A DNA stretch of 64,000 bases from Candidatus Woesearchaeota archaeon (lineage in GTDB: Archaea; Nanobdellota; Nanobdellia; Woesearchaeales; GW2011-AR9). Location: the NCBI GenBank assembly GCA_018696595.1, contig JABHQW010000008.1:1-64000 (forward strand), read 5' to 3'. Below, one piece after another: positions 10,644 to 26,919 of the stretch (positions are counted from its first letter, which is position 1; each line of letters begins with the position of its first letter). The translations under genes and the position numbers were made by a program. Below the pieces are notes generated by a model. It was not told the origin of the DNA. It did not search any database and was given only the letters and a program-made list of their open reading frames with translations.

Positions 10644-13253
10644 TTATTTTCCGGAAAGTGAAAAGTGCATAAAATCTTTTTGGTTTCCAGACCACTCCCC
10701 ACCCCATTTCCAACCAAGATTAACTAAATTTTGATATGCCGGTGAACTTTTAGTAATTGTTCCGGGAAATGATTGATCTCTTAATTTATTCTTACTTCCG
10801 CCATGGCTTAATGAACATTTACTTGAATCCCAAACATTACAATTATCATACAACCCATTATACTCTCGATTAATATCTACTGCCAAACCATAAGGATGTT
10901 GTCCAAACTTTGTTTTAGAACTATAAGTTCTTCCTTCTCTGAAACCCACAACATCAAAAATATTAAAACCAGAATTACAAATATTTTGAATAGCATTTTT
11001 TATTTGTGCTTCATATTTCCAACAGATTTTAAATGAAAGACTTTGCCCATTACAATTAACATTAATTTCTTTTTGATCTTCCCTACAAAGGGTACAACCA
11101 GAACCACTAGGATCAAATACTTCTCCACCGATTTCGGAGTACTTTTTCTGTTTAAGTCCATTATCTTCATAACTACAAGTTTGTGGAGTAACACGATTAG
11201 AATTTAGAGTATTACCAAAATTAGTATTAACACCAGAACTACTTCCAGCAGTTGGATCACAAAATTGTCCTTGTAATTGTTGAATCAAGTTTGTTGGATT
11301 CTGAATATCTTGGTGTTTTTTTGTTAAAGAATCAACTTTACAGTCAGTTGAATAACCATTATTAGGTTCCCACTTAATGTTTTCATCTTTCATGCCAGAA
11401 TACACTTCTAAATGTAACATGGCATCTTTACCATTCGTCCCACAATAACTAGCGACACCGATCTTTTGACCTGGAACAATTGAATCTCCTGGATTAACAG
11501 CAACTTTATCATTATCTATCTCGCCATAATTAATTGTTCTTTTCAATTGAGGATTGTAAACATAAACTGCGGACACTTTTTTATTAATTCCTTGTGCACC
11601 CCAACCATCCTTACATTCGTAAAAATTTTTGACAGCAACAACGGTTCCAGCTTCCAAAGCAACAACAATTCCAGGGGGTTTATTGTAAATATCTATGCCA
11701 ACATGACACCTAGTATTATCATCACGAGGATTACCCCAATTACTACTAATTTTAGTAAAACTATCACTTGTTAAAGGAAAACATTGTCCGGGAGAAGATA
11801 AGGCTAAAATCCCCCCTGGATTACTAAGACTATGAGGAGTACCATAAGAGGGAGAAGACCCCGCAGAACCTTGTTGAATAGTATAATAAACTTTCTTAAT
11901 ATCTTGCCAACTCCAAGCGTTTGTTAAAGTTTTATCCCAAACTTTTCCAACACCTTCACTAGCAACAAAATTACTAACCTTCAACCAAGCTTCATCAATC
12001 TCTTCCTGTCTTTTAGGAAGACCTTTAGGAACTTCCTTATTTTGTCCGCCAGGGGCTTGTTTTTGATATGAAGTAGGGCTGTTTGCAATTGTACCTGAAG
12101 GAGTTTGAACATTTGTCTGCCCGAGAGTAATTGCACCATAAGCAGATGACCCAGAATAAGTCCAAGCCATAGACATTTTTCCAATATTTTTATGACCAAT
12201 ATCTAAAGGGACATAATTAACATTAGGGTGCCCAGGAACTTTAAGTACTTGACCCGTAACTGCTCCAGGAGTTGAAGATTTTTCTTTATCTTTCGTATTC
12301 CATTTAACATTCTCAGTATACCAACTAGCTACCTGAGCATCATATTGGGCACCTAATTGTTTTACAGTAAGAATTGCAAATTGTGTTGGCCGATGAGCAC
12401 CCCTTCTACTTGGATCTTGCACTAACATGTACATCTCGGCATTTGAATTGTATTGTAAATAATGTTCATAAACAAGCAAGGCAGACGGTTGTTCTTCAAA
12501 TGGACTACTAGAACTAAAACCCCACCCATAATCAGAATCTGAGAAAACTATTTTATTCACACCAATAGATTTCAACGCATTATTACTTTTACTTGGACGA
12601 GTAGCACCATGTCTTAATGCTGCACCACCAGCACTATGTCCAACCATAGAAACATAACCAACATCAACCCCTGGATTAAAATTTTGTTTCAAAATATTTA
12701 TTGCATCTTGGTGTAATTGAATCAAATTAGAATCGCCATCCTTCCAAATATCATTTTGATTACTTCTTTTAGCAGTTCCTGCAGACCAGGGCATTTCCGG
12801 AAAAACAATAACGAAGTTTCTTCCTGAACCAGACAATATTTTAGCTTGAGGTGCTACTCTTAAATTCATGTCATTATAACTATCACCATTCCCGTGATAA
12901 GAGAAACCCGTTAAACCATGAAAAAAGTACATCACCTCGATTTTTTTACTGAAGTCAGTAGAACAAGGAACAAAAATAATTGTTTCCCTACCTGTGTCTA
13001 CACGATCATCATTATCATTAGGTCCATTAGATTGTAATTTCCCAATCCAACTTTTTCCCCCCAGGGTTTGTCCACTAATAGCAGCCTTCCAACCATTAAC
13101 AATTTCTTGTCGAGGATTATTCGATTCAATAACTTCATGATTTGTATTTGTACAAGTTGTCGCTCCGAAAGGAACACTTGCAGCTAAAGAGAATGAAGAA
13201 AAGAGAACTAATAGGAAAAATGACAATAAAATAATTATTTTTATTTTCTTCAT
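10644..13253 (-). CDS. Secreted multidomain protein: alpha/beta-hydrolase, shared linker, M23 peptidase, M15 peptidase
   Basis: Signal peptide; FFHG...GHSAGG elbow; HVGID (M23 HxxxD) and MLHLE; C-terminal QHPYGLAVDIN and DFMHFS (M15 Zn motifs). Confidence 0.8.
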   Translation of the reverse strand: MKKIKIIILLSFFLLVLFSSFSLAASVPFGATTCTNTNHEVIESNNPRQEIVNGWKAAISGQTLGGKSWIGKLQSNGPNDNDDRVDTGRETIIFVPCSTDFSKKIEVMYFFHGLTGFSYHGNGDSYNDMNLRVAPQAKILSGSGRNFVIVFPEMPWSAGTAKRSNQNDIWKDGDSNLIQLHQDAINILKQNFNPGVDVGYVSMVGHSAGGAALRHGATRPSKSNNALKSIGVNKIVFSDSDYGWGFSSSSPFEEQPSALLVYEHYLQYNSNAEMYMLVQDPSRRGAHRPTQFAILTVKQLGAQYDAQVASWYTENVKWNTKDKEKSSTPGAVTGQVLKVPGHPNVNYVPLDIGHKNIGKMSMAWTYSGSSAYGAITLGQTNVQTPSGTIANSPTSYQKQAPGGQNKEVPKGLPKRQEEIDEAWLKVSNFVASEGVGKVWDKTLTNAWSWQDIKKVYYTIQQGSAGSSPSYGTPHSLSNPGGILALSSPGQCFPLTSDSFTKISSNWGNPRDDNTRCHVGIDIYNKPPGIVVALEAGTVVAVKNFYECKDGWGAQGINKKVSAVYVYNPQLKRTINYGEIDNDKVAVNPGDSIVPGQKIGVASYCGTNGKDAMLHLEVYSGMKDENIKWEPNNGYSTDCKVDSLTKKHQDIQNPTNLIQQLQGQFCDPTAGSSSGVNTNFGNTLNSNRVTPQTCSYEDNGLKQKKYSEIGGEVFDPSGSGCTLCREDQKEINVNCNGQSLSFKICWKYEAQIKNAIQNICNSGFNIFDVVGFREGRTYSSKTKFGQHPYGLAVDINREYNGLYDNCNVWDSSKCSLSHGGSKNKLRDQSFPGTITKSSPAYQNLVNLGWKWGGEWSGNQKDFMHFSLSGK
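11815..12035. repeat. 221-bp direct repeat copy 1 (shared internal linker of two secreted enzymes)
   Basis: Aligns without gaps to 15802-16022. The 68-bp stretch 11953-12020 is identical to 15940-16007. Confidence 0.95.
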
Positions 13254-13284
13254 TTCTTTCCCAAATTAAATTATTTTCTAAATA

Positions 13285-14109
13285 TTATCTTTCTTTATAA
13301 TAAATAAAGTAAATTGCTAAAATCACAACTAACATTATCGCTAAAACAATAGCAAGATAAATTTGCCAAGCAGTTTTGGTTTGCTTTGTTTCTTGTATTT
13401 CTGATGATTGATATGTCCCCACAAAAAGTGTTTCTTCTGGGACATCTTGTCCATCAAAAGGATCAGTACCAACTTGCTTTTCATATGTGTCACTGTATTG
13501 GTCATGATCAGTATCTGCCCAACCAGGCAGGATATCTTCATTTAGACTGTTTGAATTGCCTCTCAACTCTGCTAAGTTACGGTAACCATCACTATCTAAA
13601 TCTATCCACCACGGCGTGGATTTAGGATTTTCTTTGTCTGTGTTAGAATTATGTTCTTCATAATTATAAAACCCATCTTCATCGGAATCTACACAATCAA
13701 TATCATAATCACCCAAATAATCAAAACATTCTTCTTCATACAATATCACACAAATATTGTCGTTTTGCACACACCAGTTTTCCTCATCTATTTCCCCATA
13801 ATATTCAATAGTATTAGGATTTTCAGTTGGGTCTTCTGGGTCAGTACCAATTACCAGCTCTTCTTCGTTACCAAACCAATCACCATCAGTGTCCCATTGT
13901 GATAAAAAAATATTACAGGCATCTAAATTATTAGCGAGAAGATAGTTTTCAAATCCTGTATCTAGTTCTTGCAATTCGTAACATAGTGCCAAAGTAAGTG
14001 TATCTTCACTAATTTCTGACCCAGATAGTGCCGTTACTAAATAAATCGAACAAAATAAAAATACAAGTACAATAATAGTTTGTTTTGTTTTCTTTTGTTT
14101 TGTTTTCAT
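13285..14109 (-). CDS. Membrane-anchored acidic protein with DxDxDG calcium-binding (thrombospondin type 3-like) repeats
   Basis: N-terminal signal; DTDGDW, DSDEDG, DLDSDG, DTDHDQ repeats each followed by E..GTDP-like segments; C-terminal TM helix. Confidence 0.7.
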   Translation of the reverse strand: MKTKQKKTKQTIIVLVFLFCSIYLVTALSGSEISEDTLTLALCYELQELDTGFENYLLANNLDACNIFLSQWDTDGDWFGNEEELVIGTDPEDPTENPNTIEYYGEIDEENWCVQNDNICVILYEEECFDYLGDYDIDCVDSDEDGFYNYEEHNSNTDKENPKSTPWWIDLDSDGYRNLAELRGNSNSLNEDILPGWADTDHDQYSDTYEKQVGTDPFDGQDVPEETLFVGTYQSSEIQETKQTKTAWQIYLAIVLAIMLVVILAIYFIYYKER

Positions 14110-14121
14110 TTGTTTTGTTTT
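14077..14121 (-). repeat. 3 x 15-bp tandem repeat (AAAACAAAACAAA-NN) spanning the start codon of 13285-14109
   Basis: Units AAAACAAAACAAATG, AAAACAAAACAAAAG, AAAACAAAACAAACT. Confidence 0.8.
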
Positions 14122-14153: not shown

Positions 14154-17100
14154 TTAAATATTAAATTGATCCAAAGTATTTCCATTTTCATCCTTAGCCA
14201 CACAATGTAAATTCGCATCGCAACGATAATACCCTCTTGTTTGTAAACAAAATACAGACCCTTGAGTAGGTAAACAGGATCTTGGATTTAGCATCGCACC
14301 AACTTCTAAATGTGTTACCCCCCCTCTAATTACTCTAGCTAATCCATGAGTGTGTCCAGCAAAAGCTAATACTTTATTCCCTTTATTTTTATGTTCCACT
14401 AATAATTCATGCCACTTTCTTGCGCAACCATTACTATGACTCCCAGTAATCTGTGGATAAGCAGGTTTATGATATCCCAACATAATATCTTTGTTAGGGT
14501 TCGCATTCAACTGTTGTTTTAAAAATTGAGTTTCGAAATTACAATTGCCCTCATTATTTAGAATGATTGCTATTAAATTAGAAGTTATAGGCACCACATG
14601 ATGACCACCATTAGACATTTGATTACGGATGTAAGGAAATTCATCACCTAAATTATCGGCAATTGCTTGGTGGCCTTTTCCTTTATAAGTACTCTTGCTT
14701 TCGTGATTCCCCACAATGGCATAAAGAGTCCCTTGCTTAATTAAATCACGTTCATAATTTAAAAACTTTTTCCAATGGTCTTTTCTACCACCATCATCAA
14801 CAAAATCTCCAACATGAAACAATGAAGGGTTGGCACATTCTTTCTTTATACTTTCAAGTGCTATTTTTTGTTTAAGCGTAGGGTTACGAGTATCACCATA
14901 TAATATCAAACAATTTGGATCTTTTACTTGTCCCTGGCCCACGTAAGTTGTTTGAGAAGGTGCTGTTGAACCAGAATTTTTAGCACTTGGACCAGTTGAA
15001 TAACCACTTTGAGATGCTTCCTTACATTTTGAAAAATAAACATAACGTTCTGGTCTATCACCTCCCACATATCTTTTAAAAACTTCTTTAATTTGTTCAG
15101 GAGTCTGTGCATTTTTAGCACCTTTTTTAATCAATTCATCAACCATAGCAACAATATTCTTATGAGGGTCAAAAAGATCACAAAGAGTATAAGTTATTCC
15201 CCCTTGCTCAATCGTAGTGGCCCCAAAATTAGAAGTTAATTGACCCAAACCAATCCCATATCGATAATTAGGATCAAATTTATTCCCATTATTATCACAA
15301 AAATGGGCTTTTGCTAAATTTGGATTGCTGGTAGGCACATTCAATGAATAAGTAGAAGTATCAAAAATTCCTTTAATACAAGGATCTTGTATTGCCTGAA
15401 TACATTGTGCTCTTAATTGTTGTCGTTCACTACTTGATAAACTCCTTCGATTCTCAACCAAATTAACACAACTAGAATGCTTATTTGCTTCAGCATTACA
15501 ATCATTCATCAATTTGCTAGTGCTTGCTTCTGAAAATGGACCATACTGATTTTGACATGCAGGAGATTTATCTAAAAGTAATCTTCTTCTTGCTGAAACA
15601 GTACATCTACCAACATTAGCATCATTACCTACTCTCCACCATTGACCACTAGATTCTTGTTTCACTGTTACCAAACCAAAACAAGGATCAATCCCTTTCT
15701 GTTTAGACACTTCTACAACCTCAGGCAAATAAGTAGTATCTTTATATCCACTAAGACCAGCAAAACTGCCAGATCCTGTTGAGGATAAAGGAAGTGGCCC
15801 GCCAGGATTACTTAAGCTAAATGGAGTCCCATAAGAGGGAGCAGAACCGATAGGAATTTGTTGAATGGTGTAATAAACTTTCTTAATGTCTTGCCAACTC
15901 CAAATGTTAGTCAAAGTTTTATCCCACACTTGATTAACCCCTTCACTAGCAACAAAATTACTAACCTTCAACCAAGCTTCATCAATCTCTTCCTGTCTTT
16001 TAGGAAGTCCCTTAGGAACCTCTTGAGTGGTAAATTGTTGTTGCTGTTGTTGAGAGTAAGGTTGTGCAAATTGCTGATTATTACTAGCCAACTTAGAACC
16101 AGGAGTTATTCCTTGTTGATTATTTGTCTGCTGTTTGATACAACTTGCAATCATCCCATTATGATCATTCTCTGTTACTTGTCCTTCTATCGGAGCAACT
16201 AATTCGACACTAAAAGGATTAAAATTTGCAACACTCTCTTTAGGAGCAAAATAATAATAAGCGTCAGTATTGTAAGCATAACGTAAACAATAAGCAACTG
16301 CCTTAACATGACGATGATCAGAAACAACTAACACTTTTTCTCCTGGTTGAATATAACCTTTTGAGTTTTGTAAGTTAGCAGCAGTGTCTCCAGACTTAGT
16401 TTCTTTAATGACGGCAATCTTAGAATGTATATTTTGGTCAAGTGTTAACAAATACGTTTCCATTTCTGTAGCTTCATTACAACCACCACTACAAGTCTGA
16501 CAGGTTGCATCTTTATCTGTTTCAACACAACCACCAGTTAAAATTAATTTTTTAAAATTATTTCCTACACTAATCAAATCATAACCTGCTCTTACTCGAT
16601 TTTCCATCTCTGAACGCAGATGTCTTCCAAGAATCATCATCGTATCAAACTCTTGCAAATTTGCCGAATTGGTTAAATAAGTACTTGTAGCTTGTTCTGT
16701 TGTTATTTGTCCCCCAAACACTTCGCTAAAAACTTTATTTGACATTGCTTGATATCCAGCAGTATTTGGATGAACATTGCCACAAGAAGAAGCATAATTT
16801 GAATTCATACAAGGTTCTTGACTAACAAGAAGTTGATAAAAATCTACCACACCACCAATATTCCCAATTTCTTTTTGTGTTCTTATCCAGACATTAATTT
16901 CTTTAACTACATTATTCTTTTCTACACTATTTTGTTTGTTATATGGGGGAATTGTTCCAGCTATGACCTTAATATTGTTATTTCTTGCTAAAAAATAGAT
17001 CTGTTCTAAATTTGCAATCACATCAGGGGCAGACTTGCCCCCACTAATATCATTAGTCCCACCAAGAACAATTAAATGAGTATATCCTTTATTAAGAATC

Positions 17101-17348
17101 TCTGATTTAAGTTTAGTTAACATCCAGGGAGTCCATTTCCCACTAACAGCATAATTAATGGGTTGATTTCCACAAGATTGAATAAATTGAGGACCCCAAC
17201 CAACAGTAATAGAATCACCTAATAAAGCAATTTTATTACTATTACAAGAATCAGCTAAGACAGAGAAAGATAACCAAGAAATAAATAAAAAAATAACAAC
17301 TAACAAAAACAATAATTTACCTTTCCCTCTTTTTCTGTCCCCAAACAT
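14154..17348 (-). CDS. Secreted multidomain protein: SGNH hydrolase, DUF218-like, shared linker, SLT/lysozyme-like, metallophosphoesterase
   Basis: GDSI/GTND/HPN (SGNH); GG...EA.EM..YL...ETKSGDTAAN...VSDHRH (DUF218-like); QESSG...GLGQL...LFDPHKNI (SLT-like); GDT/GDFVD/GNHE/GHTH (calcineurin-like). Confidence 0.8.
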   Translation of the reverse strand: MFGDRKRGKGKLLFLLVVIFLFISWLSFSVLADSCNSNKIALLGDSITVGWGPQFIQSCGNQPINYAVSGKWTPWMLTKLKSEILNKGYTHLIVLGGTNDISGGKSAPDVIANLEQIYFLARNNNIKVIAGTIPPYNKQNSVEKNNVVKEINVWIRTQKEIGNIGGVVDFYQLLVSQEPCMNSNYASSCGNVHPNTAGYQAMSNKVFSEVFGGQITTEQATSTYLTNSANLQEFDTMMILGRHLRSEMENRVRAGYDLISVGNNFKKLILTGGCVETDKDATCQTCSGGCNEATEMETYLLTLDQNIHSKIAVIKETKSGDTAANLQNSKGYIQPGEKVLVVSDHRHVKAVAYCLRYAYNTDAYYYFAPKESVANFNPFSVELVAPIEGQVTENDHNGMIASCIKQQTNNQQGITPGSKLASNNQQFAQPYSQQQQQQFTTQEVPKGLPKRQEEIDEAWLKVSNFVASEGVNQVWDKTLTNIWSWQDIKKVYYTIQQIPIGSAPSYGTPFSLSNPGGPLPLSSTGSGSFAGLSGYKDTTYLPEVVEVSKQKGIDPCFGLVTVKQESSGQWWRVGNDANVGRCTVSARRRLLLDKSPACQNQYGPFSEASTSKLMNDCNAEANKHSSCVNLVENRRSLSSSERQQLRAQCIQAIQDPCIKGIFDTSTYSLNVPTSNPNLAKAHFCDNNGNKFDPNYRYGIGLGQLTSNFGATTIEQGGITYTLCDLFDPHKNIVAMVDELIKKGAKNAQTPEQIKEVFKRYVGGDRPERYVYFSKCKEASQSGYSTGPSAKNSGSTAPSQTTYVGQGQVKDPNCLILYGDTRNPTLKQKIALESIKKECANPSLFHVGDFVDDGGRKDHWKKFLNYERDLIKQGTLYAIVGNHESKSTYKGKGHQAIADNLGDEFPYIRNQMSNGGHHVVPITSNLIAIILNNEGNCNFETQFLKQQLNANPNKDIMLGYHKPAYPQITGSHSNGCARKWHELLVEHKNKGNKVLAFAGHTHGLARVIRGGVTHLEVGAMLNPRSCLPTQGSVFCLQTRGYYRCDANLHCVAKDENGNTLDQFNI
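15802..16022. repeat. 221-bp direct repeat copy 2
   Basis: Encodes EVPKGLPKRQEEIDEAWLKVSNFVASEG...SLSNPGG, as in copy 1. Confidence 0.95.
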
Positions 17349-17986: not shown

Positions 17987-20900
17987 TTATTCTGGGAGAC
18001 AACAATACATTATGGCACTACTACCGCACCCGTGTTCAAGACCTAAACTATCTGCCCACGCTTGTGTTGAATACATTCCCCTACTCCAACATTGTGGTGT
18101 AGTTGGCGGACTTCCAGGAAGGTTACTTGAAGATAATAATGCACCTCCAGTTGGAGTCCTACAAACATAAGTGTTCCAATTATTTGGTTGCCAACCAGCA
18201 GGATAATTTGTTGCGATTTGGAAATTTGCATCTTTATGACCACAAGTTCCTGTTACTGGAGAAGTTGTATCTAAAGAAGCACCATCAGTAACACCTGCAC
18301 CAGTAATATCAATATTACATTGTGCTTTATCTTTAATAATTGTTAAATATTTTCTAATCTTCTCATAATCTGGTTTCTCATTACCAAGTGTTCCAGTCAC
18401 ACCCTCTGGATAAGGTTGTCCAATGTTCCCAAACCCATAATCTCTTTCAAAGAATGTTTTTAACATACTACAAACTTTAAATTTAGAATCCTGATTTTGA
18501 ACCCAGTTTTCTCCTCCCAATAAAATATGACAAGCAGCAGAATAATACACAGCAATAGCATCTTCAACATCATTATTCTTCCGATCTAATATTTTTCCAG
18601 ACCGTGCTAAAACTTCTGCACAATTACCTACCATATAATCCTGATGTAATTGGCTAGCTTGCTGAGCAACTAAAGGTTGTAGTGTTAAAGTAATTGATTC
18701 AGTATGTTCCGACCTTCCAAACGTAGGGGCTTTGACCCCAATATTTGCATTGAAACAACCATTTTGTCCGTCTGGCATTAATAACTTAGCAGTTACTGAA
18801 ATTGAGCTTTGTCCTAATGAAGAAATTGACGAACCACCAGCAGAATAAACGCAAGATGTTTTGCCATTACCTACTGTTGGAGCACCAACAAGATTAGTAT
18901 ACTTCAAACCACCAAAATTAAATATTGTTGCTTTGATTTCTTGTGGAGTCAATAAGTCTTTGCCATCTTTTCTTAATACAGATTCTAATCCTTGTGGGAA
19001 TTCAGTATAACCGGCTGGACCTTCAACAGTTACTCCTGAAGGAAATTTAACACGATATTGGTTTCCAACTTTCTCAAAAATAAACGGATAATCTTTTGAT
19101 TGCACGGAAGCTCCAGAAGAACCATAAGCAAAAGGTTGACTACAACCTGGAGCACTACTTGATGTATCTAAAGTTAATTTCCCACTACCACCAGAAAACA
19201 TCCCTTCGTTAACTGTACCTAAACCTTGAATTTCAATTGCAAAAGGCCCAGGTAAACCCTTTGGAAGAGGATCAGCAGGAGGGAATTGAGATGAATAACT
19301 ATTTAGAGGATCAGACTGTTGATACAATCCAGAGACAGAAGTTCTTAAACAATAATCTCCACCATCAGTCATCATGTGTACTTTAACTCTTATTGGGTCT
19401 CCTTTTGAGAATACACCTGGAGTTTTACAACCAATCCAAGATTGTGTTCTTTGATCATAACAACTCATGTAAGGGTCTTCTAAATAAACCCCTGCCCCAG
19501 AACCAAACATTTTCTGAACCTCTGGGCAGAAGTATCTTCCCGTAGCAGGTTGTACTTGACAAATAAATTCTGCAGGTGCAGAAGTATCAATGATAGGATA
19601 ATAAAATACGCCATCGCGATAACCTTCATCAAAACATTTTTCCGATTCTTCATAAGCATCTAAGTTTAATTTTACAACAACATGATCATATCGATAACTG
19701 GAATCAACTTTTTGTGGTGCGGGTATTTCTAAATCAACAAATGAACCAGATTTAAGATCTCTAATTCTACCATGTTCAACATTATAAGTTTTTTCAGACT
19801 CTAAGTTACTAGACTCTTCTGTGATGTGTAAACAATCACAACCTTGCCCTTCACAGCTTACTCCGGGACGATCTAAATCTTCTTGCCCAACACATTTCAA
19901 GGAAACATCAACACTTTTAATCTTACATCCCGGAAGCACCATCGCGCCTAAGTTATAATTGTAAACTGCCGAACCTTTCTGGGGATTAAAAGTAGCTAAC
20001 TCTCTTTCAGCTGGGAAAACCATAACAGTAGTTTTTCCTGAAACAGCGTATGCAGAATCCAAAATGAAGTCTGTTCCCATCGGCCAATCATAACCAAATG
20101 CAGCCATACAAATTGATTGAGTAAATCCTTTAGAACCAGCAGCAAAATATTGGTTAAGTTGAGCATTACCATAATCACTTTTAATATCATCAATTGAAGA
20201 TTGCATTGCTTCTCCGATTGATTCAATTCCTGCTTTAAAACCAAAACCTAAGCTATCCAATAAACCGCCACTTTCTCCTTTGGCTTGATCACCAGCAGTA
20301 TTAGCGCTACAATCATTATAAAAATAAGCAATAATCTTGTAAACTAATCCACAGACGTGTTGTGAAAAAATAGTTTTACAAACTCCCGCATCTGTCAAAC
20401 CAGAAATCTTAGCTTCTTCGATACAATTTCTAAATCCTTCTAAGATGCTCTTCAATGTAATTAACTGGGCTCTAACTCTAGACAAACAAATTGTTTGGTA
20501 AGCTCCTAAAAATTGAGTGTGAGGATTAACTTCATGAACTTCTTTATTCTCTCCCTTCAAATAATCTAATAAATAATCTGCTCCAAAAGCTGAAGAAGTG
20601 TCTCTTACAGAATAATATCTCCATTCAGGATAGTAAGTCCCCCCATTACCAGAACTTTCTCTAAACAATGTTCCTTGCCTATAACTCCATCGTTCAGATT
20701 CCTCACCAACTTCTTTAGCCGCAACTCTGACACCACTATAACCTTTAGTGTTATTAATATCTTCAGCCACGCAAACACATTGTAATAATCCAGTGTAACC
20801 TGTGTCTGGTTTCTTAGCTACTAATGTGCTTGTTGAAGCTGTTTGTGTTACAACCCCTTCAACAATGCAAATATTATTTTTACCACAAAAAGAATTATTT

Positions 20901-23900
20901 CCAAGTTCTGTTTTACAAATTGCATCACTTTGACACTGAACTGTTGAGGCAGAAGCTTGTCCTGTTTGTTCCAAATCAACAAAACAATCCGAAGTATAAC
21001 CCGCAGGGTATCTTGGGCCTTTCAATAATCTGCCATTAGTGTCGTCTGCTGTTTCAGCTATTGGTTCACCTAAATTTGTTGAATCTTTAGAGTTTCCAGA
21101 CTGATCTGTAAGTTCGCCCTGCTCATTTTCTCTAATTATAATTGTCTGTTCATCAGAGTCGGCAGCAGGTTCAGGGATTTCCACTCCACCCTCTAAAACA
21201 ATATTCTTCCCAGAAAACTTTTCTGCATAACAGCCATGTTGTACGGCCCCTTTCTCTTGTTCATTAGCAATATTCTTCACACTTTTAGTAACATCATATT
21301 CATAACCCGGTTTCCTTAAACTTTGACAAACATATTCACAACTTCTATCTTGACCAACAATAAAGTTATTTGCTTTTGGAGGTTTGTAAGCAATTAATTT
21401 CTGAGGAACATCTTGAGCAATCGCACTTAAACCACCAGTATTTAATTTTCTTCCAAAGTCATAAATTAAACTTAACTCTCTAGTTTCTCCACCTCGTACC
21501 ACCGACTTTGAAGCCCCACCAGTATCTATATATAAACGATCATTGTAACGGTAACAAGTACTTCCTCCTTTACTGATAAACTCTGCAGTTCTTTGGTTAG
21601 GCATAGAAGAAACATGATTTTTTTCAATGATTTCATTACAATTCTCAATTTCTTGTAGTGGAACCCCTGAAGCAGAAACTGAACATTGACTTTGTTTAAG
21701 AACAACAGTATCAACTTCTGCTTTATCTTTTGATGCAGTCCAACCCGCAGGAACTGCTCGACAATAAACCCGATCACAAGTCCATTTGTATAATTGATCA
21801 AGAGCAGCCTCAGCTTTCCACATTCCTGCCGTGCTTGGACAAACATCATCTAAAGAATATCCTTCAGCATTCCAATCTTGTTTTACATTCCCGTCAGTGT
21901 ATCCAATAGAATCATAATCACCTGGATTAGTTCCTGGTTGATTGAATAAACCACTAACTTCACTCCAATGATCTACTGTTTTCTTCAATAATAAGTTACT
22001 TTGATCCTTGGGGCATTTTTTCCCTTCAGCATCAGCACCAACTGCACTTGAAACTTTAGAAGAATAAGATTCATATTTAGCAGTAAATATTCTTAACCAT
22101 CTTACAACCATCCTTCCAAGGAATGAACCAATACAAGCATAACCAGCCACAAGAACTGCATCTTCAATGTAAGGCAGGATATTATCTATTAAATTAATAG
22201 TTTCATCAACAACAGTTAATCCTTCATCAGCTAACCAATCTGGGATCATGTCTGCACTATCAATAGGAATATCAACAAAATAACTTAAATCATAACAAGA
22301 CGTTTGAGTTTTTACCGGCCCAAGATTCCCATTACCATCCCTCTCTTGATAACTAACTCTAATCTTCATCGGAAAAACTATTTGTCTTTTCTTGAAATCA
22401 TTCCAGAAATCGCCATCCTTATCACTTAACTTTTCTGCACTATGTAAATTATAAGTTAAGTACCAAGCAGTTTTATCATTGTTAGAAATCTTTCTAGGAT
22501 GTGGGGGCATAACATTACATCCCAACTTAGTACTTTCGTCTTCCATCATTCCTGATGTACACGCCCGATCAAAACTAACACTATTGACTTTAAATGCTTC
22601 ACCCTCTGGAAGAATCTGCCCAGAGTTCTGATCTTTCTTAGCCTGTCCAGAACCCCGATAACTCAAATTAAATACCGCGGTTGCTTCTTCCCTACCATCA
22701 TCCAATAACCCAGGATCTAAACGTAATGGTCTTTGAAATTCAGGAACTGAACGAATATCAAAATCCCAATCAGAGGAATAACAGGTGTTAACAGTAACAG
22801 TAGTTTGAGCAAAAGCAGTTTTTCCACTTTTATCTTCTGCAACTAAAAAAACATGATATGTCCATTGCTGTTGATCAACAACAGTAGAAGTTGGAAAGAT
22901 AGAATAATCTAACAAATTTTGAGGAACTTCTTTTGGGGCCAAATTTTCCAGACTTACTGGTTCGCTTTCAAAATCAACATCTTTAAATTTAAAAGTCCCA
23001 TTTTGGTCGGCAGTAACCTTTGCCCAAGCACGATCAAACTTAGGACTATAATCATAACCAATTGGCCGATAAACAAACAAGTAAATATCCGCCCCAGCTT
23101 CAGTCTCACCATCAATTGATGATTCTGCTCGGCCCTGATAATATTCCTGCCCTTTTGAAATGTCAAATTTAAGAGTTGGTGCTTTTGTATCTGCACCGAT
23201 AACTATTTCTTTAATCGTTTCCCAACCAGCCACATCTTTGGCAACAATCTTAATAATATTTTCACCTTCTTCTAAAGAGAGAGATTCTTTAATTTCAACT
23301 CCAGTCCCATCTGCTTCAGATTCATTATTGACAAAAACTTCATAATCAGATTCTTCAGAAATTGTTGCCACTAAATCAAAACTCCCTTGGTCAACTATTT
23401 CAGGAATATCAGCAACAGTTATTTGGGGCTTACTCCCATCTGCAAACACAGTTCCAGAGAATTGAGCAGAATTACCAGCAGCATCAATTACTTCTATTCC
23501 TATTTGATTATCCTTATCCTTGCCAACAATAACATTATTAAACACGAACTTACCATCCAAATTTTCTGGCTTGTCTTCCTCTTCTTTATCTTCTTGATTT
23601 TTATCCCATAAAGCTTTTCCATACGGCGCTTCTAAATAACTAAAACTAATTGCACTTCCAACTAAAGCTTTTTCCTGATCATAAATTTCATCAACAAAAT
23701 CTTTTTTGTTATTAAAACCTAATGCTGAAAAATCTAATCCCTTTTCATAAATAACGTAAGGAACATTTTCTCCATCTTCTTTTCGATTATAGCAACCATT
23801 AAGTCCTTCATACTTGTTCTCAGAAGCACAACTAGAATCAACAGTTGTAAAATAACCACCAGCAGGATCAACTGCTTTCCAAGCACCATCAATATAAACA

Positions 23901-24910
23901 TCCGCAAAAACATGACCTAAGAAAGGACTATCAACTTTTTCACCAGCATTAACTTTCTCTAAGAAATCCTGTTGGATCGTTTCAACATAAATTGCAGGAA
24001 TTCCTTTAGCTCTTGCTAAAGTTATAAACACTAATGCAAAATCAGTACAACCACTAAACTCTCCTTTTTCAATAATTTCTTCAGCAGTAAGACTTCCTTT
24101 AGCTAAAGAGTCAATATCTTTGTGTTCTAAATTGTCTTGGATCCAAGAAATAATATTCTCCGCAATCTCTTTATCAGAATCTCCAGTAATTAAATCGGCC
24201 ATTTTCTGGATTGCAGGAGTGACTTCTGTTTGTTCACCTGTTTGTAAATATTTAGTTGCTAAAGCAGGAAGTTCTTCTTCAGGAGTTTCACTTTCAATCA
24301 TTTCACTTTCATTTACTGGACCCTCAATTTCCTCTTCAACATCTTCAACAACAGTTTCTTTATTATCATCAAAAGCATCTTCAATAACTAAGTTTTCTTC
24401 AAACTCAGATTTAGCAACAGTACTACCAGCAAAAGCGTCGTTAACATAAAGCTTAACATTCATTCCTGGTTCGGTCCAACCAACAAGGTCAAATTTCCCG
24501 CCTGGAATCATTTTCGGAAGATTAACATAAACTTCGGGAGCAGTAGTGTCTGGAACTAATGTTCTGAATGAGTATAAGTTTCCAGAATTGTCATCAACAG
24601 TTCCAGAACTTTCAACATTGTAAAAATATTCCTGATCTTCATTAAGATTCTCTAACGACATCTCGTGCTCAGTTAATTCCTTAGCATCGCCTATCTTTTG
24701 CAAACTTTCTTTATTATCTCCGTAACTTACAAAACTACTTCCAGCTTCATCAGTATCCCATTTAATTACAGCACCATTCTCTGTAATATCTTCTGCACTA
24801 ATACCCGAAATTTCTAACGCGTTAACTAAAGGCAAATTAACAAATAGAGCAATAACTATCAAAACCAATAACTTCCTGTTCAGTATTCTTGTAAATTTTT
24901 CTCTCATCAT
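17987..24910 (-). CDS. Giant (2307 aa) secreted surface protein: FN3/Ig-like repeats, transglutaminase-like domain, Cys-rich regions
   Basis: Signal peptide; FN3-like (WDTDE...H...L.NL....YFY.V); GCTDF...GHVFADVY...D triad; D..GN Ig-like strands; C-terminal C...CC motif. Confidence 0.75.
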   Translation of the reverse strand: MMREKFTRILNRKLLVLIVIALFVNLPLVNALEISGISAEDITENGAVIKWDTDEAGSSFVSYGDNKESLQKIGDAKELTEHEMSLENLNEDQEYFYNVESSGTVDDNSGNLYSFRTLVPDTTAPEVYVNLPKMIPGGKFDLVGWTEPGMNVKLYVNDAFAGSTVAKSEFEENLVIEDAFDDNKETVVEDVEEEIEGPVNESEMIESETPEEELPALATKYLQTGEQTEVTPAIQKMADLITGDSDKEIAENIISWIQDNLEHKDIDSLAKGSLTAEEIIEKGEFSGCTDFALVFITLARAKGIPAIYVETIQQDFLEKVNAGEKVDSPFLGHVFADVYIDGAWKAVDPAGGYFTTVDSSCASENKYEGLNGCYNRKEDGENVPYVIYEKGLDFSALGFNNKKDFVDEIYDQEKALVGSAISFSYLEAPYGKALWDKNQEDKEEEDKPENLDGKFVFNNVIVGKDKDNQIGIEVIDAAGNSAQFSGTVFADGSKPQITVADIPEIVDQGSFDLVATISEESDYEVFVNNESEADGTGVEIKESLSLEEGENIIKIVAKDVAGWETIKEIVIGADTKAPTLKFDISKGQEYYQGRAESSIDGETEAGADIYLFVYRPIGYDYSPKFDRAWAKVTADQNGTFKFKDVDFESEPVSLENLAPKEVPQNLLDYSIFPTSTVVDQQQWTYHVFLVAEDKSGKTAFAQTTVTVNTCYSSDWDFDIRSVPEFQRPLRLDPGLLDDGREEATAVFNLSYRGSGQAKKDQNSGQILPEGEAFKVNSVSFDRACTSGMMEDESTKLGCNVMPPHPRKISNNDKTAWYLTYNLHSAEKLSDKDGDFWNDFKKRQIVFPMKIRVSYQERDGNGNLGPVKTQTSCYDLSYFVDIPIDSADMIPDWLADEGLTVVDETINLIDNILPYIEDAVLVAGYACIGSFLGRMVVRWLRIFTAKYESYSSKVSSAVGADAEGKKCPKDQSNLLLKKTVDHWSEVSGLFNQPGTNPGDYDSIGYTDGNVKQDWNAEGYSLDDVCPSTAGMWKAEAALDQLYKWTCDRVYCRAVPAGWTASKDKAEVDTVVLKQSQCSVSASGVPLQEIENCNEIIEKNHVSSMPNQRTAEFISKGGSTCYRYNDRLYIDTGGASKSVVRGGETRELSLIYDFGRKLNTGGLSAIAQDVPQKLIAYKPPKANNFIVGQDRSCEYVCQSLRKPGYEYDVTKSVKNIANEQEKGAVQHGCYAEKFSGKNIVLEGGVEIPEPAADSDEQTIIIRENEQGELTDQSGNSKDSTNLGEPIAETADDTNGRLLKGPRYPAGYTSDCFVDLEQTGQASASTVQCQSDAICKTELGNNSFCGKNNICIVEGVVTQTASTSTLVAKKPDTGYTGLLQCVCVAEDINNTKGYSGVRVAAKEVGEESERWSYRQGTLFRESSGNGGTYYPEWRYYSVRDTSSAFGADYLLDYLKGENKEVHEVNPHTQFLGAYQTICLSRVRAQLITLKSILEGFRNCIEEAKISGLTDAGVCKTIFSQHVCGLVYKIIAYFYNDCSANTAGDQAKGESGGLLDSLGFGFKAGIESIGEAMQSSIDDIKSDYGNAQLNQYFAAGSKGFTQSICMAAFGYDWPMGTDFILDSAYAVSGKTTVMVFPAERELATFNPQKGSAVYNYNLGAMVLPGCKIKSVDVSLKCVGQEDLDRPGVSCEGQGCDCLHITEESSNLESEKTYNVEHGRIRDLKSGSFVDLEIPAPQKVDSSYRYDHVVVKLNLDAYEESEKCFDEGYRDGVFYYPIIDTSAPAEFICQVQPATGRYFCPEVQKMFGSGAGVYLEDPYMSCYDQRTQSWIGCKTPGVFSKGDPIRVKVHMMTDGGDYCLRTSVSGLYQQSDPLNSYSSQFPPADPLPKGLPGPFAIEIQGLGTVNEGMFSGGSGKLTLDTSSSAPGCSQPFAYGSSGASVQSKDYPFIFEKVGNQYRVKFPSGVTVEGPAGYTEFPQGLESVLRKDGKDLLTPQEIKATIFNFGGLKYTNLVGAPTVGNGKTSCVYSAGGSSISSLGQSSISVTAKLLMPDGQNGCFNANIGVKAPTFGRSEHTESITLTLQPLVAQQASQLHQDYMVGNCAEVLARSGKILDRKNNDVEDAIAVYYSAACHILLGGENWVQNQDSKFKVCSMLKTFFERDYGFGNIGQPYPEGVTGTLGNEKPDYEKIRKYLTIIKDKAQCNIDITGAGVTDGASLDTTSPVTGTCGHKDANFQIATNYPAGWQPNNWNTYVCRTPTGGALLSSSNLPGSPPTTPQCWSRGMYSTQAWADSLGLEHGCGSSAIMYCCLPE

Positions 24911-26919
24911 TTTACTTCTGGTTTAGGCAAAATTAAACTATGTTCCTTTAACCCCAACATTAATTCCACCATTTCATCTTCATTTGGATTCTTTTTAGTA
25001 ATAGTATGGAAAATAATTTCGTTAACATTTTCTAATTTGTTCCAAGGAACAGTCCATTCTCCTTTATATCCACCAACAAACTCTTCTTCGTTAAAGACAT
25101 GTACTTCCACATCATAGGTAAAGTCTGCTTTAGCCATTAATTCAACTTTCTGATCCTCCAAGAATTGGTCACTTAATCCAGAAGAACGAACAAAGTTAAT
25201 ATCATGAGTAATTTCTTTCTCAGAATAATTCCATGGTTGAAGTTTCATGGTAATCAAAGCCAACTCATCTTGAGTCGCACTTTCTGCATTTCCAAATAAA
25301 AGATCCCCGCCAATAAATAATTCATGTTTGACAATCTTAATTTTGCTAAGCGGAACTTTAATAGTTGGTATTAAGTTTAATTCAACTTCTTGGCCATCTT
25401 TAGTAACAACCCGTTGCCAATCTTCTTTGTAACTATCTTTAGTTCCCCTCAGAATACCACCAACGCAATAAGGAAAGTTTGTTGAGAAACCAGCATAACC
25501 TAATCCCGCATAATCATATTCAGTTTTACCAATTTCACATTGATATTGTAAACAACTAAATTCAACATCAACTTCATCTAAATCTTCGGTGTAAGCTACA
25601 CCCTGACCATTTTCAACAAATTCATAAGTTTTTACAGTCATTGGAACTTTTCTTTGAACACAGTAATCTTCTAAAGTTTCAGTAGGGAACATGTAAGAAG
25701 GTCTTGATTCTGGATTACCTCTACTTGGCTGATTTGCAACTAAATGAACAGTAAAAGCCATGTTAAAATTATAACCTGTTGTTTCATCTCTTAAGTTTAC
25801 GGTTACTGGATACATTAAATCATAAGTGAACTTCCAACTTTGGATGCATAAGAAAGATAATTGTTCTGCCCCACCCAGACTAGAACTTTTTAATTTTGAG
25901 CCAGAAACTGGAGTTACTGCAAAAACATAAGGAAAACTAGAATCAAAATTAAAAATTACATTAACATCAGAATCAGCATAATCATCTCCTAAGTCCCAAA
26001 CATAATGATTATCATAATAAGTTAATCCGTCTTCATACGCTGGATAATAATTTGTTGGGAATTCAACAACATCTGTATCTTTAATTCTTAACTGTCTTAA
26101 ATTTACTCTCACTAATTCTAATAAAGTTTCTTCTGCTTCTTTAACACTCCAGGTTTTTTTGTTACAACTTAATGTCATTCCAGCAGCAGGAACTTTAGGA
26201 TGTTCTAAAGCAATTAAATCTTGAGTAAGGTCTTCAAGTTTAAGTGTATCCATCTCCTTTTCAATAATTCTCTCAGCCAATTTGTGTAAGCGTTTTAACT
26301 TGGCCGGATTCTCAGTTACGTGATTAATTACTTCGGAAACGACTTCTCCACCCTTATTTCTAACCTCAACATCCCAATGAACATTAAAAATAACTTTACT
26401 TTCTACAATTTCTGTATTCGCAGTGATGTCACTTTTTTCAATTAAATCATAAGATTCTTGAAAAGCTTCTAAATCAAATAAACAAGGTCTTAAATTTTCT
26501 TCGATATAAGTGTCAATTCTTTCCTTAATTAAAAGAATTGAAGGAACATTTACGTTCGGACCAGAAGCCCAAAATGGAACTGTATGTATTGGAGATATTT
26601 TTAACCCATAATTAGCATCATTAAGAGAATCTTCAGAGATTTTAATATATCCCCCTTGCGAACCAATAATTAACAACGCATCTTCTCCCACTTGATCCAT
26701 ACAAGTTGTAATGAAATTTTCAACTTTACCTTTCTCTGTAGGAATGATTTCTTCGGTTTTAAACGAGATTACTTCTTTCTTTAACGCTATTACTAAGACC
26801 AAAGCTAGTAACATTAAAATCCCAAGAATAATGAAAATAGTAATCTGGCCTTTCTTAGATCTAGGTTTAGCAGAAAAAGCTCTAATTACATCTAATTTAT
26901 ACCTCTTTTTGTTATTCAC
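24907..26919 (-). CDS. Large pilin-like protein with class III signal peptide
   Basis: SKKG-QITIFIILGILMLLALVLV, followed by paired Cys motifs (TTCMDQ, RPCL, CLQYQC). The stop overlaps the start of the giant gene. Confidence 0.7.
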   Translation of the reverse strand: MNNKKRYKLDVIRAFSAKPRSKKGQITIFIILGILMLLALVLVIALKKEVISFKTEEIIPTEKGKVENFITTCMDQVGEDALLIIGSQGGYIKISEDSLNDANYGLKISPIHTVPFWASGPNVNVPSILLIKERIDTYIEENLRPCLFDLEAFQESYDLIEKSDITANTEIVESKVIFNVHWDVEVRNKGGEVVSEVINHVTENPAKLKRLHKLAERIIEKEMDTLKLEDLTQDLIALEHPKVPAAGMTLSCNKKTWSVKEAEETLLELVRVNLRQLRIKDTDVVEFPTNYYPAYEDGLTYYDNHYVWDLGDDYADSDVNVIFNFDSSFPYVFAVTPVSGSKLKSSSLGGAEQLSFLCIQSWKFTYDLMYPVTVNLRDETTGYNFNMAFTVHLVANQPSRGNPESRPSYMFPTETLEDYCVQRKVPMTVKTYEFVENGQGVAYTEDLDEVDVEFSCLQYQCEIGKTEYDYAGLGYAGFSTNFPYCVGGILRGTKDSYKEDWQRVVTKDGQEVELNLIPTIKVPLSKIKIVKHELFIGGDLLFGNAESATQDELALITMKLQPWNYSEKEITHDINFVRSSGLSDQFLEDQKVELMAKADFTYDVEVHVFNEEEFVGGYKGEWTVPWNKLENVNEIIFHTITKKNPNEDEMVELMLGLKEHSLILPKPEVK

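Follow-up and report, generated by a model that had tools for sequence, protein, structure and literature searches.

The 64,000-nucleotide stretch analysed here (the window) carries on its minus strand a locus of six tightly packed ORFs, separated by -4 to 44 bp and, judged from their conserved order, probably co-transcribed. All six genes that an earlier note on this DNA had described as co-oriented and closely packed are present:

10644-26919, minus strand: the whole locus, six co-oriented ORFs
24907-26919, minus strand: P6, 670 aa, first operon gene; class III (prepilin-type) signal peptide and large beta-rich ectodomain
17987-24910, minus strand: P5, 2307 aa, secreted giant; Sec signal peptide, 55 Cys, conserved blocks at aa 500-1100 and 1400-1800
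17370-17978, minus strand: P4, 202 aa, pilin-like
14154-17348, minus strand: P0003, 1064 aa, predicted four-enzyme protein with signal peptide; first gene of the variable slot
13285-14109, minus strand: P0002, 274 aa, acidic; signal peptide, four DxDxDG repeats, C-terminal transmembrane anchor
10644-13253, minus strand: P0001, 869 aa, predicted three-enzyme protein with signal peptide; second gene of the variable slot

Genes for TFB, GatD, PAC2 and TrmB in the window, together with database matches named Woesearchaeota or Nanoarchaeota, confirm an archaeal/DPANN origin and dispose of the possibility, raised in the earlier note, that the contig is bacterial. The source genome measures 1.19 Mb and is 97% complete. 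Multidomain lysins beside giant proteins do recall phage virion-associated lysins and fibres, and the nearest Atlas cluster of the P0001 alpha/beta-hydrolase domain is viral, as might be expected of a provirus lysis or tail module; alternatively, a bacterial fragment could have been mis-binned into an archaeal genome. However, GC content is even throughout the window, no integrase or capsid gene was found among the neighbouring genes, and the locus lies between PAC2 on one side and enolase/RelA on the other, with gene order unchanged across a dozen genomes. The exact P0001 protein also occurs, with unchanged neighbours, on 23 contigs (up to 0.2-1 Mb) from several independent marine samples. 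We therefore regard a viral or mis-binned origin as highly improbable.

The first three genes form a conserved core. P6 has a homologue in 59 of the 60 genomes of the order, and its N-terminus (...KKGQ-ITIFIILGI...) follows a pattern, [KR][KR]GQ[VI]T[IV]FIILG, kept in 17 homologues; it matches no Pfam family, and its Atlas clusters consist entirely of Woesearchaeota/Nanobdellota hypotheticals. P5 follows P6 throughout the order in the sampled loci; in the family it is a Cys-rich secreted giant of 1800-2300 aa. The source genome's P5 additionally contains

23864-24184, minus strand: transglutaminase-like core, P5 aa 243-349 (Pfam PF01841, E 3.9e-11)

within an insertion (aa ~176-454) that is particular to this genome and missing from all 12 aligned P5 proteins of the family. 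This core and the alpha/beta-hydrolase domain of P0001 are additions to the domain list of the earlier note. P4, about 190 aa family-wide, begins with K-Q-G and a hydrophobic helix bearing Glu at +5, followed by a ~150-aa domain with two invariant Cys; it is single-copy in 34 of 35 family genomes, with just weak matches elsewhere (4 of 24 other families). The class III-type N-termini of both P6 and P4 are kept across relatives, bearing out the two class III signal-peptide proteins previously noticed alongside a 2307-aa surface-type giant, which is indeed present with its Sec signal peptide. The locus itself contains neither an assembly ATPase nor a platform gene for a pilus; a prepilin peptidase and two T2SSE-type ATPases are encoded elsewhere in the source genome. 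It may be that P6 and P4 are just surface proteins anchored in the membrane.

Thirteen sampled loci show the order PAC2-P6-P5-P4-slot, many with a 4-bp overlap between P4 and the slot gene. The synteny search that the earlier note had proposed revealed P6-P5-P4-hydrolase repeated in ~30 genomes of the family, so the link between hydrolases and pilin-like or giant proteins is not a single-genome coincidence. This conserved order proves co-inheritance, not physical association. No RNA run contained the locus. Other families of the order have P6-P5 without any hydrolase in the slot, indicating that the core operon serves a purpose apart from the hydrolases.

Right after P4, the slot holds one or two Sec-secreted multidomain proteins, all with secretion signals, whose domains vary by genome: SLT, GH25, Amidase_2, M15, M23, M74 and M14, with esterases and phosphoesterases. 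Among 29 family genomes scanned, 20 slots contain a murein-cleaving domain above the Pfam cut-off (SLT, GH25, Amidase_2, M15_4/M15, M23 or M74), five more contain one by weak or fold evidence, and four have none that is recognised. M14 sits next to M74. One slot protein (G009) reaches 3116 aa and is of the large extracellular murein-hydrolase type, of which AR20 (Castelle 2015) is reportedly an earlier case in the lineage. Every scanned genome has its own slot architecture, the sole matching pair being the source genome (G000) and G027. Even within one genus the contents differ: G002 carries deacetylase+SLT+EEP where G000 carries P0003 and P0001, despite flanking P6, P4 and enolase that are 62-70% identical.

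The source genome's two slot proteins have the following domains:

16734-17231, minus strand: SGNH/GDSL esterase domain, P0003 aa 40-205 (Pfam PF13472, 57.7 bits; PDB GDSL-like matches, E 1e-12)
16266-16646, minus strand: DUF218 domain, P0003 aa 235-361 (Pfam PF02698, 43.3 bits)
15837-16046, minus strand: family-specific module copy 1, P0003 aa 435-504, consensus C..RC.EIDEVW...(V/I)WD...W..F..Y
14988-15773, minus strand: SLT-like domain, P0003 aa 526-787, divergent predicted lysozyme fold, lytic-transglycosylase-like
14268-14870, minus strand: calcineurin-like metallophosphoesterase domain, P0003 aa ~827-1027 (Pfam PF00149, 30 bits, cut-off 21.5)
12138-13181, minus strand: alpha/beta-hydrolase (esterase-like) domain, P0001 aa 25-372, invariant GHSxGG (GHSAGG in P0001)
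11850-12059, minus strand: family-specific module copy 2, P0001 aa 399-468, 87% identical to copy 1 over 83 aa
11274-11786, minus strand: variant M23 (LytM-type) domain, P0001 aa ~490-660 (Pfam 22.2 bits, under the cut-off of 28.7)
10647-11138, minus strand: M15_4 (VanY / phage L-Ala-D-Glu peptidase type) domain, P0001 aa ~706-869 (Pfam PF13539, 41.9 bits, cut-off 25)

The domains named in the earlier note largely hold up. In P0003, SGNH, DUF218 and Metallophos all exceed their Pfam cut-offs. The SLT-like domain is matched by no sequence in Pfam or the PDB and has just 23 representatives in 1.8 billion proteins; it is assigned by motifs together with a predicted fold, the protein being helical and Z about 11. 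The AF2 model (pLDDT 82.8) aligns best in VIA with the lytic transglycosylases MltF (Z 11.3), MltC (10.5) and MltE (10.3), and the top 50 are nearly all lysozyme-superfamily proteins, including chitinases. An invariant Glu565-Ser566 and a GLGQ motif are separated by a large Cys-rich helical insertion. On this model, the domain is a rare lysozyme-fold domain nearest to lytic transglycosylases.

In P0001, the alpha/beta-hydrolase domain weakly matches CE1 feruloyl esterases and has Atlas features of alpha/beta-hydrolase/esterase clusters at 0.91-0.96. The M23 domain, sub-threshold in Pfam, is confirmed by fold (Foldseek lysostaphin/LytM probability 1.0; VIA LytM Z 13.4). Its Zn ligands HxxxD and last His are intact, and YGEI and MLH stand where the two catalytic His residues normally lie, a feature conserved within the subfamily. 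It could be non-catalytic, like EnvC/NlpD-type LytM domains, which usually lack Zn ligands too. The M15_4 domain carries HPYGxAxD and a terminal MHF His, with weak structural matches (Z 4-5) to VanXYg, LdcB, Ply500 and MepA. Like M23, M15_4 is a module typical of phage lysins. Between the two slot genes, P0002 was correctly recognised as an anchored DxDxDG Ca-binding protein: its thrombospondin-type-3 repeats score above the cut-off (Pfam TSP3_bac, 29.2 bits), and homologues occupy the same position in G016 and G027.

Family or predicted fold thus supports classing the slot enzymes as peptidoglycan hydrolases, and the earlier proposal that they act on a wall other than the archaeon's own also stands. 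In the 97%-complete source genome neither a PBP transpeptidase nor a SEDS polymerase was found, and there is only one gene of Mur-ligase type (Mur_ligase_M), so the substrate is not the archaeon's own wall; with AnmK and NagB likewise not found there, and the sole MurQ model match far under its cut-off, it should be foreign murein. The lone ligase gene might hint at a murein-like wall remodelled by these enzymes as autolysins. Against this stand the PBP and SEDS results just given and the turnover of whole slot architectures within one genus; we know of no autolysins whose entire domain architecture is normally replaced among members of a genus. We give this explanation very little credence.

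The enzymes might instead target something other than murein, for example an archaeal host's coat of glycan or peptide, chitin-like polymers or the cell's own envelope, with bacterial-type domains recruited to a new substrate. Known DPANN hosts are archaea (PMC8204110; bioRxiv 2025.11.11.687807). Moreover, M23 has a non-canonical active site, the SLT-like domain has diverged strongly, and chitinases also use the lysozyme fold. However, slots across the family hold many independent murein-specific families (Amidase_2, GH25, M15, M74, SLT, and M14 beside M74), and convergent retargeting of every one is unlikely. To our knowledge, MurNAc-L-Ala and D-amino-acid peptide bonds occur in neither archaeal envelopes nor pseudomurein. 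A non-murein target is accordingly improbable.

A second family-specific feature is a ~55-aa module (EIDEVW...VWD...W) found in 16 of 17 slot proteins just N-terminal of the murein-cleaving domain, whatever that domain's fold. It is present in 29 of 35 family genomes and in none of 24 other families of the order; a phylum-wide search found it in 31 of 35 family genomes versus 1 of 265 others. Of 35 module matches, 33 are on the strand of P4 and 85-8187 bp downstream of it, and for the remaining two P4 falls at a contig end. At the DNA level, copies 1 and 2 form a 249-nt repeat (82%). The module either tethers its proteins to the surface structure or is a new element that binds murein.

The second option would suit freely released enzymes that kill competitors, bacteriocin-like, or degrade wall debris, in which case the slot position would reflect shared regulation of secreted proteins only. 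Halophilic archaea do secrete bacteria-killing peptidoglycan hydrolases (PMC12352652). The module's placement fits a substrate-binding element, the slot proteins lack any known domain for wall binding (LysM, SH3 or PG_binding), and P6-P5 can exist without hydrolases. Yet the module is confined to one or two slot genes per genome and is missing from the further SLT-type genes that these genomes carry (for example G000:C6), and its distribution is as narrow as that of P4, within the same family. Feeding on debris is further disfavoured by the lack of a recognised muropeptide or amino-sugar use pathway in the source genome. Small DPANN genomes with few biosynthetic genes, such as this 1.2-Mb one, are expected to be partner-dependent (PMC8204110). 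Free release is possible, but we consider it unlikely.

Taking the explanation as a whole, we lean slightly towards reading this region as one instance of a locus that marks out a single DPANN family of Woesearchaeales type, in which conserved P6-P5-P4 is paired with a variable hydrolase slot for opening bacterial walls. We infer surface display of the slot enzymes and a bacterial host. The enzymes would be produced alongside the P6-P5-P4 surface structure and would act outside the cell, at or near that structure, on bacterial murein, opening the wall of a partner or prey at the contact site. In the source genome, the SLT-like domain would cut glycan strands and the variant M23 and M15_4 would be stem-peptide or cross-bridge metallopeptidases; three esterase-type accessory domains (SGNH, DUF218 and alpha/beta-hydrolase) could strip wall modifications, and a putative phosphoesterase is also encoded. 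Slot turnover may reflect adaptation to differing wall chemotypes or bacterial counter-measures.

As to the bacterial-host idea, the earlier note overstated its novelty: large extracellular murein hydrolases of Woesearchaeota/Pacearchaeota and the inference of bacterial hosts are in print (PMC8204110, PMC9723730, PMC10936187, PMC12352652). Murein attack by Woesearchaeota was proposed by Castelle 2021 (PMC8204110), Vigneron 2022 (PMC9723730) and Strock 2025 (PMC12352652), and Vigneron et al. reported GH23 genes. These proteins resemble ours in lineage, secretion, size (up to ~3000 aa) and inferred bacterial-wall attachment or attack, but the reports give them as lists of genes. What appears new here, at the level of sequence, is the conserved P6-P5-P4 operon, the slot with genome-specific enzymes and the shared ~55-aa module. 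Literature searches, including full text, turned up no account of the fixed location behind P6-P5-P4, catalytic-domain replacement or the module, nor of the non-SLT members (M23, M15, M74, M14, Amidase_2, GH25).

Strock et al. 2025 found modular peptidoglycan hydrolases prominent in Nanoarchaeota, and their Halobacteriales zoocin A homologues (PMC12352652) are likewise archaeal, patchy and shuffled, with M23 and other hydrolase domains of bacterial type. Those proteins were defined by the pairing of a known wall-binding domain (PG_binding_1, others) with a single catalytic domain, whereas slot proteins lack a known binding domain, combine two to four enzyme domains and are linked to a conserved operon. 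Saccharibacteria, ultra-small episymbionts, use type IV filament proteins for host binding (PMC11623550); in P6 and P4 the resemblance lies in class III signal peptides alone, with assembly genes elsewhere in the genome, and a filament would be hypothetical. Phage endolysins, virion-associated lysins and predatory-bacterium lysins (such as the Bdellovibrio MltA-like transglycosylase, PMC10127604) similarly breach a foreign wall externally with mixes of glycosidase, amidase and endopeptidase. The slot proteins differ in being chromosomal, vertically inherited in an archaeon and equipped with Sec signal peptides, and holin or virion genes were not found. In bacterial polymorphic effector systems, variable toxin domains are joined to a conserved trafficking or adaptor domain and encoded beside delivery-apparatus genes. 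The slot locus lacks immunity genes, for which a producer without murein would have no use, and has no known secretion machine; its module is internal rather than terminal, and delivery via the core proteins is hypothetical. The two nonetheless share a conserved short module, variable enzymatic cargo, a fixed site beside apparatus-like genes and rapid cassette turnover.

Comparison across relatives of the source archaeon showed that P6, P5 and P4 form a vertically inherited unit of three conserved surface proteins, and that the position directly after P4 (the slot) holds a rapidly exchanged cassette of secreted murein hydrolases tagged with a shared module. All six ORFs of the cluster proposed in the earlier note are present at 10644-26919 on the minus strand, with gaps of -4 to 44 bp; one of them, P5, contains an insertion that is listed with them:

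10644-13253, minus strand: P0001, 869-aa slot protein
13285-14109, minus strand: P0002, 274-aa anchored Ca-repeat protein
14154-17348, minus strand: P0003, 1064-aa slot protein
17370-17978, minus strand: P4, 202-aa pilin-like protein
17987-24910, minus strand: P5, 2307-aa giant protein
~23549-24385, minus strand: insertion in P5 (aa 176-454) with a transglutaminase core
24907-26919, minus strand: P6, 670-aa class III signal-peptide protein (predicted)

The surroundings of the locus include the following genes, of which TFB, GatD, PAC2 and TrmB identify the window as archaeal:

7434-9329: full-length RelA/SpoT-type protein (HD_4, RelA_SpoT, TGS and ACT domains), directly downstream of the locus together with enolase
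9369-10628: enolase
27112-27918: PAC2 proteasome chaperone
29633-30391: TrmB regulator
31439-32737: GatD
39650-40570: TFB

The GC content of the window is uniform at about 0.32-0.37, the assembly comprises 1.19 Mb in 8 contigs at 97% completeness, and relatives of the locus proteins carry the source names Candidatus Woesearchaeota or Nanoarchaeota. Because an identical 869-aa P0001 occurs on 23 contigs (of up to 0.2-1 Mb), its neighbours unchanged each time, and these come from independent marine samples that include oxygen-deficient waters, the locus is not mis-assembled. Searches of the 64-kb window with ARAGORN and Rfam yielded no RNA genes, tRNA included, and NCBIfam returned nothing useful for the six locus proteins. 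Elsewhere in the window (43200-47456), a 1418-aa protein combines Ig-like domains with a match to the Nup98-type autopeptidase S59 domain (30.9 bits, above cut-off), a domain unusual in an archaeon.

Homologues of P6 were found in 59 of 60 genomes of the order, always with a P5 homologue as the next gene. Within the family, the gene order is PAC2 - P6 - P5 - P4 - large secreted protein(s), then often enolase and RelA, with a 4-bp overlap frequent between P4 and the gene that follows; the P6-P5-P4 unit is probably co-transcribed. Among public sequencing runs, none of RNA was listed as carrying the locus. Of 35 family genomes, 34 carry one copy of P4; beyond the family, P4 matched only weakly, in 4 of 24 other families. 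The RelA/SpoT-type gene and enolase are conserved neighbours of the locus in many family genomes; in two relatives (G011 and G007), enolase lies between P4 and the module-bearing gene.

We scanned the slot in 29 family genomes, with the following result.

Murein-cleaving domains in the post-P4 slot of 29 family genomes. Counts for individual Pfam families overlap, since some genomes carry several murein-cleaving families.
Murein-cleaving domain by Pfam above cut-off: 20/29 genomes
Murein-cleaving domain sub-threshold or by fold (new SLT-like family, variant M23, Hydrolase_2): 5/29 genomes
No recognised murein-cleaving domain: 4/29 genomes
SLT above cut-off: 11 genomes
M15_4 or M15 above cut-off: 7 genomes
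Amidase_2 above cut-off: 3 genomes
M74 above cut-off: 3 genomes
GH25 above cut-off: 1 genome
M23 above cut-off: 1 genome

The accessory domains of the slot vary too, spanning SGNH, DUF218, polysaccharide deacetylase, alpha/beta-hydrolase, metallophosphoesterase, endonuclease/exonuclease/phosphatase (EEP), M14 carboxypeptidase and PGA_cap. Each scanned genome has a slot architecture of its own, except that the source genome (G000) and one relative (G027) share theirs. In a relative of the same genus (G002), the slot encodes a deacetylase, SLT and EEP, and P6, P4 and enolase are 62-70% identical to those of the source genome. SLT-type genes are also present outside the slot in family genomes, and about one in three SLT-bearing ORFs of the family sits in this one position of ~10 kb.

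Two relatives illustrate the range of slot content. The slot protein of G009 (L060 807-10157, G009:C10) reaches 3116 aa. Besides EF-hand-like Ca motifs and a weak Amidase_2 match, it carries the module, SLT and a VanX-type M15 domain, and it is probably a member of the published transglycosylase family with proteins of 'up to 3000 aa'. Three slot genes in G031 (L056 621-7589, G031:C30) encode Metallophos, SGNH and the module; PGA_cap (CapA-like); and the module with M74 and an M14 zinc carboxypeptidase. The source genome also has a second wall-hydrolase-like pair outside the locus (L048 2933-5565, G000:C6:264932-267564), neither member of which has the module. One, of 423 aa, bears a Cys/His papain-like motif at its C-terminus; the other, of 468 aa, has a canonical SLT domain (80.5 bits). 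This pair lies ~8 kb from the prepilin peptidase gene, with a 181-aa pilin-like ORF nearby.

The module emerged from a stretch of 83 residues shared by P0001 and P0003 at 87% protein identity (a 249-nt DNA repeat, 82%), from which a profile defined a motif of ~55 residues with the consensus C..RC.EIDEVW...(V/I)WD...W..F..Y. In P0003 the motif-bearing module occupies aa 435-504. The motif was present in 16 of the 17 slot proteins compared and in practically every database homologue. Genome searches across the order found it in 29 of 35 family genomes versus none of 24 other families, and across the phylum in 31 of 35 family genomes versus 1 of 265 other genomes, with one or two copies per genome. 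Of the 35 module hits, 33 share the strand of P4 and follow it downstream at a distance of 85-8187 bp; at the two exceptions, P4 is at a contig end. A word-index search with the module profile, weak as a survey, returned 13 proteins, all of the same lineage where named. Within proteins, the module stands directly N-terminal of the murein-cleaving domain, whatever the fold of the latter. Judged from these patterns, the module may either tether its protein to the surface proteins or be a new element that binds murein: its confinement to the slot and its distribution in common with P4 favour the tether, and its fixed place beside the catalytic domain favours the binding element. A complex prediction for the P4 ectodomain with the module scored 0.00 ('no answer'), which is neither support nor counter-evidence.

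P0001 begins with a Sec signal peptide, followed by alpha/beta-hydrolase, module, M23 and M15_4 domains. Of these, M23 covers aa 490-660 and M15_4 aa 706-869. The alpha/beta-hydrolase domain has an invariant GHSxGG (alignment A6), a weak CE1 esterase match, and esterase-type clusters in the Atlas clustered protein database. The M15 domain called in the earlier note stands, with PF13539 at 41.9 bits against a gathering cut-off of 25 and an intact Zn-binding H-x6-D and C-terminal His (HPYGLAVD and FMHF, conserved in alignment A3). For a possible Hedgehog/DD-peptidase fold, the structure comparison gave only Z 4-5 to VanXYg, LdcB, Ply500 and MepA, in a part of the model with pLDDT 50-80, and phmmer with the M15 half found nothing significant in the PDB. 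For the M23 domain, the proposed fold holds but the Pfam score falls short: PF01551 matched at 22.2 bits, below its gathering cut-off of 28.7, and the homologous domain in one relative (G025) is above it at 31 bits. The model of this region (pLDDT 65.7 overall, 80-89 in the core) matched lysostaphin, LytM, LytU and EnpA in Foldseek (probability 1.0, E about 2e-5) and LytM in VIA, an exhaustive structure comparison (Z 13.4, rmsd 3.0, 125 residues aligned), and is thus predicted to have the LytM/lysostaphin beta-fold. The zinc ligands, HxxxD and the last His of HxH, are kept (RCHVGID and MLH-L-E, conserved in A3). The two catalytic His residues (of Yx-H-L and the first of HxH) are missing throughout the subfamily, which reads YGEI and MLH (A3), and since Glu and Met occupy both usual catalytic His positions, activity is uncertain. 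This adds to M23 a subfamily with Glu and Met where the catalytic His is usual.

In P0003, a signal peptide precedes SGNH, DUF218 and metallophosphoesterase domains, each above its Pfam cut-off, as had been proposed. The SGNH/GDSL domain (PF13472, 57.7 bits) has GDS, GTND and HPN blocks readable in the translation. The SLT-like domain claimed for the same protein is borne out by fold and motifs, but not as a member of the Pfam SLT family: the 260-aa region (aa 505-815 scanned) had no Pfam hit, PF01464 included. The family profile gave chance matches only against PDB sequences, a near-length word-index search recovered P0003 itself and nothing else, and Foldseek found no PDB match to the model at E <= 0.001. 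The domain itself covers aa 526-787. Its AF2 model (mean pLDDT 82.8) aligned best in VIA to MltF (Z 11.3), MltC (10.5) and MltE (10.3), with Slt70 at 8.2, and almost all of the top 50 chains belonged to the lysozyme superfamily. E565-S566 and G-L-G-Q are invariant in 20 sequences and correspond to SLT motifs I and II, set ~130 aa apart by a Cys-rich insertion that canonical SLT domains lack. With 23 representatives in 1.8 billion clustered proteins, the family represents a rare branch of the lysozyme/lytic-transglycosylase fold that had not been recognised before.

P0002 combines a signal peptide with four thrombospondin-type-3 DxDxDG repeats above the Pfam cut-off and a C-terminal membrane anchor, in agreement with its description as an anchored Ca-binding protein. 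The two proteins noted as bearing class III signal peptides, P6 and P4, both have the features we looked for, namely a short charged N-terminus, a [KR][GA] cleavage motif and a hydrophobic helix of ~20 aa. P6 starts ...KKGQ-ITIFIILGILMLLALVLVIAL, with a 20-residue hydrophobic helix, and 17 homologues keep its [KR][KR]GQ[VI]T[IV]FIILG; we read this N-terminus as a predicted signal peptide of the prepilin (class III) type. In P4, K-[KQR]-[GA] comes with a hydrophobic helix and Glu/Gln at +5, a pattern that 14 homologues conserve. Across the order, the first ~200 residues of P6 also define a multi-copy paralogue family (2-11 hits per genome, e.g. G000:C6:174508-176049), with members from ~260 aa up to 700-860 aa, all with a class III-type N-terminus. 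A prepilin peptidase is encoded on another contig (PF01478, 59.4 bits, G000:C6:275304-275645), as are two T2SSE-type ATPases on other contigs. An ATPase and a platform protein encoded with the pilins, by which a type IV filament is recognised, are missing at the locus: no pilus assembly ATPase or platform protein was found in the window around it.

P5 has a Sec signal peptide, 55 Cys and a transglutaminase-core domain (Pfam E 3.9e-11). The insertion carrying this domain is absent from 12 of 12 aligned family relatives, one of them of the same genus, and on this alignment it looks like a recent acquisition in the source genome. An Atlas search with the C-terminal 1400 aa gave no usable match. 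A hydrophobic segment at ~aa 918 was considered as a membrane span and rejected; it is conserved, but too weakly hydrophobic. P5 as a possible S-layer protein, and P6 and P4 as possible true pilins, were also considered.

Whose wall would these enzymes cut? No PBP transpeptidase or SEDS polymerase was found in the 97%-complete source genome, and only one Mur-ligase-type gene, so this archaeon is not reshaping its own murein wall. Amidase_2, GH25, SLT, M15 and M74 target MurNAc-L-Ala, MurNAc-beta-1,4-GlcNAc and D-amino-acid peptide bonds, which are features of bacterial murein; to our knowledge, pseudomurein and archaeal S-layers lack them. The substrate of the slot enzymes is therefore most likely bacterial murein encountered outside the cell. 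AnmK and NagB were not found in the genome and a match to the MurQ model was far below threshold, so there is no recognised route for feeding on muropeptides. The main rival reading is that the hydrolases are freely secreted for competition or scavenging and that the gene order reflects co-regulation only; we consider this unlikely.

We lean slightly towards a coupled attack, in which the hydrolases act with P6-P5-P4 on a bacterial wall. The enzymes would work at or near the P6-P5-P4 structure and open up the wall of a bacterium, be it partner or prey; wall modifications that block the glycan cutters would be stripped by esterases and the deacetylase, and the phosphoesterases may act on teichoic acids, lipids or nucleic acids. 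Turnover of the cassette would then correspond to differing target chemotypes or to counter-defence. Whether any DPANN archaeon lives on bacteria is an open question in the field, and we know of no Woesearchaeote cultured so far. What has been published amounts to a list of murein hydrolase genes, which our analysis turns into a defined locus with a three-gene surface module, one replaceable enzyme slot and a lineage-specific tag. Slot content may predict the wall chemotype of the host, the tag could be used for partner pull-down or to stain candidate host cells, and assays of the enzymes can be run on different sacculi.

Large extracellular murein-like transglycosylase proteins were described in Woesearchaeota and Pacearchaeota by Castelle et al. 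2021, who proposed episymbiosis with bacteria (PMC8204110), and predatory, 'vampiristic' Woesearchaeota were proposed by Vigneron et al. 2022 (PMC9723730). Murein transglycosylases have likewise been noted in DPANN genomes from oxygen-deficient zones, and Strock et al. 2025 showed experimentally that archaeal peptidoglycan hydrolases kill bacteria and noted that these are abundant in Nanoarchaeota (PMC12352652). The idea of an attack on bacterial walls, raised in the earlier note, is partly supported by our domain and comparative evidence, and its central inference is not new. In the papers we read and in our full-text searches, we came across no account of the conserved setting P6-P5-P4, of a single hypervariable slot, of the family-specific module, or of the SLT-like family and the variant M23 subfamily, both divergent from the known forms.

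The locus is best filed as archaeal (DPANN) murein hydrolases that form a polymorphic, module-tagged cassette within a conserved operon for surface proteins. A further reading, doubtful in our judgement, is that P6-P5-P4 could be a dedicated cell-surface (possibly filament-based) contact apparatus of one Woesearchaeales family, used on the murein of bacterial hosts, with the module as an adaptor loading interchangeable wall-degrading effectors whose turnover tracks host wall chemistry. If true, the adaptor reading would make the locus an archaeal counterpart of bacterial polymorphic-effector delivery. The likeness to a polymorphic effector system lies in a conserved, adaptor-like module carried on variable cargo and adjoining conserved, apparatus-like genes.
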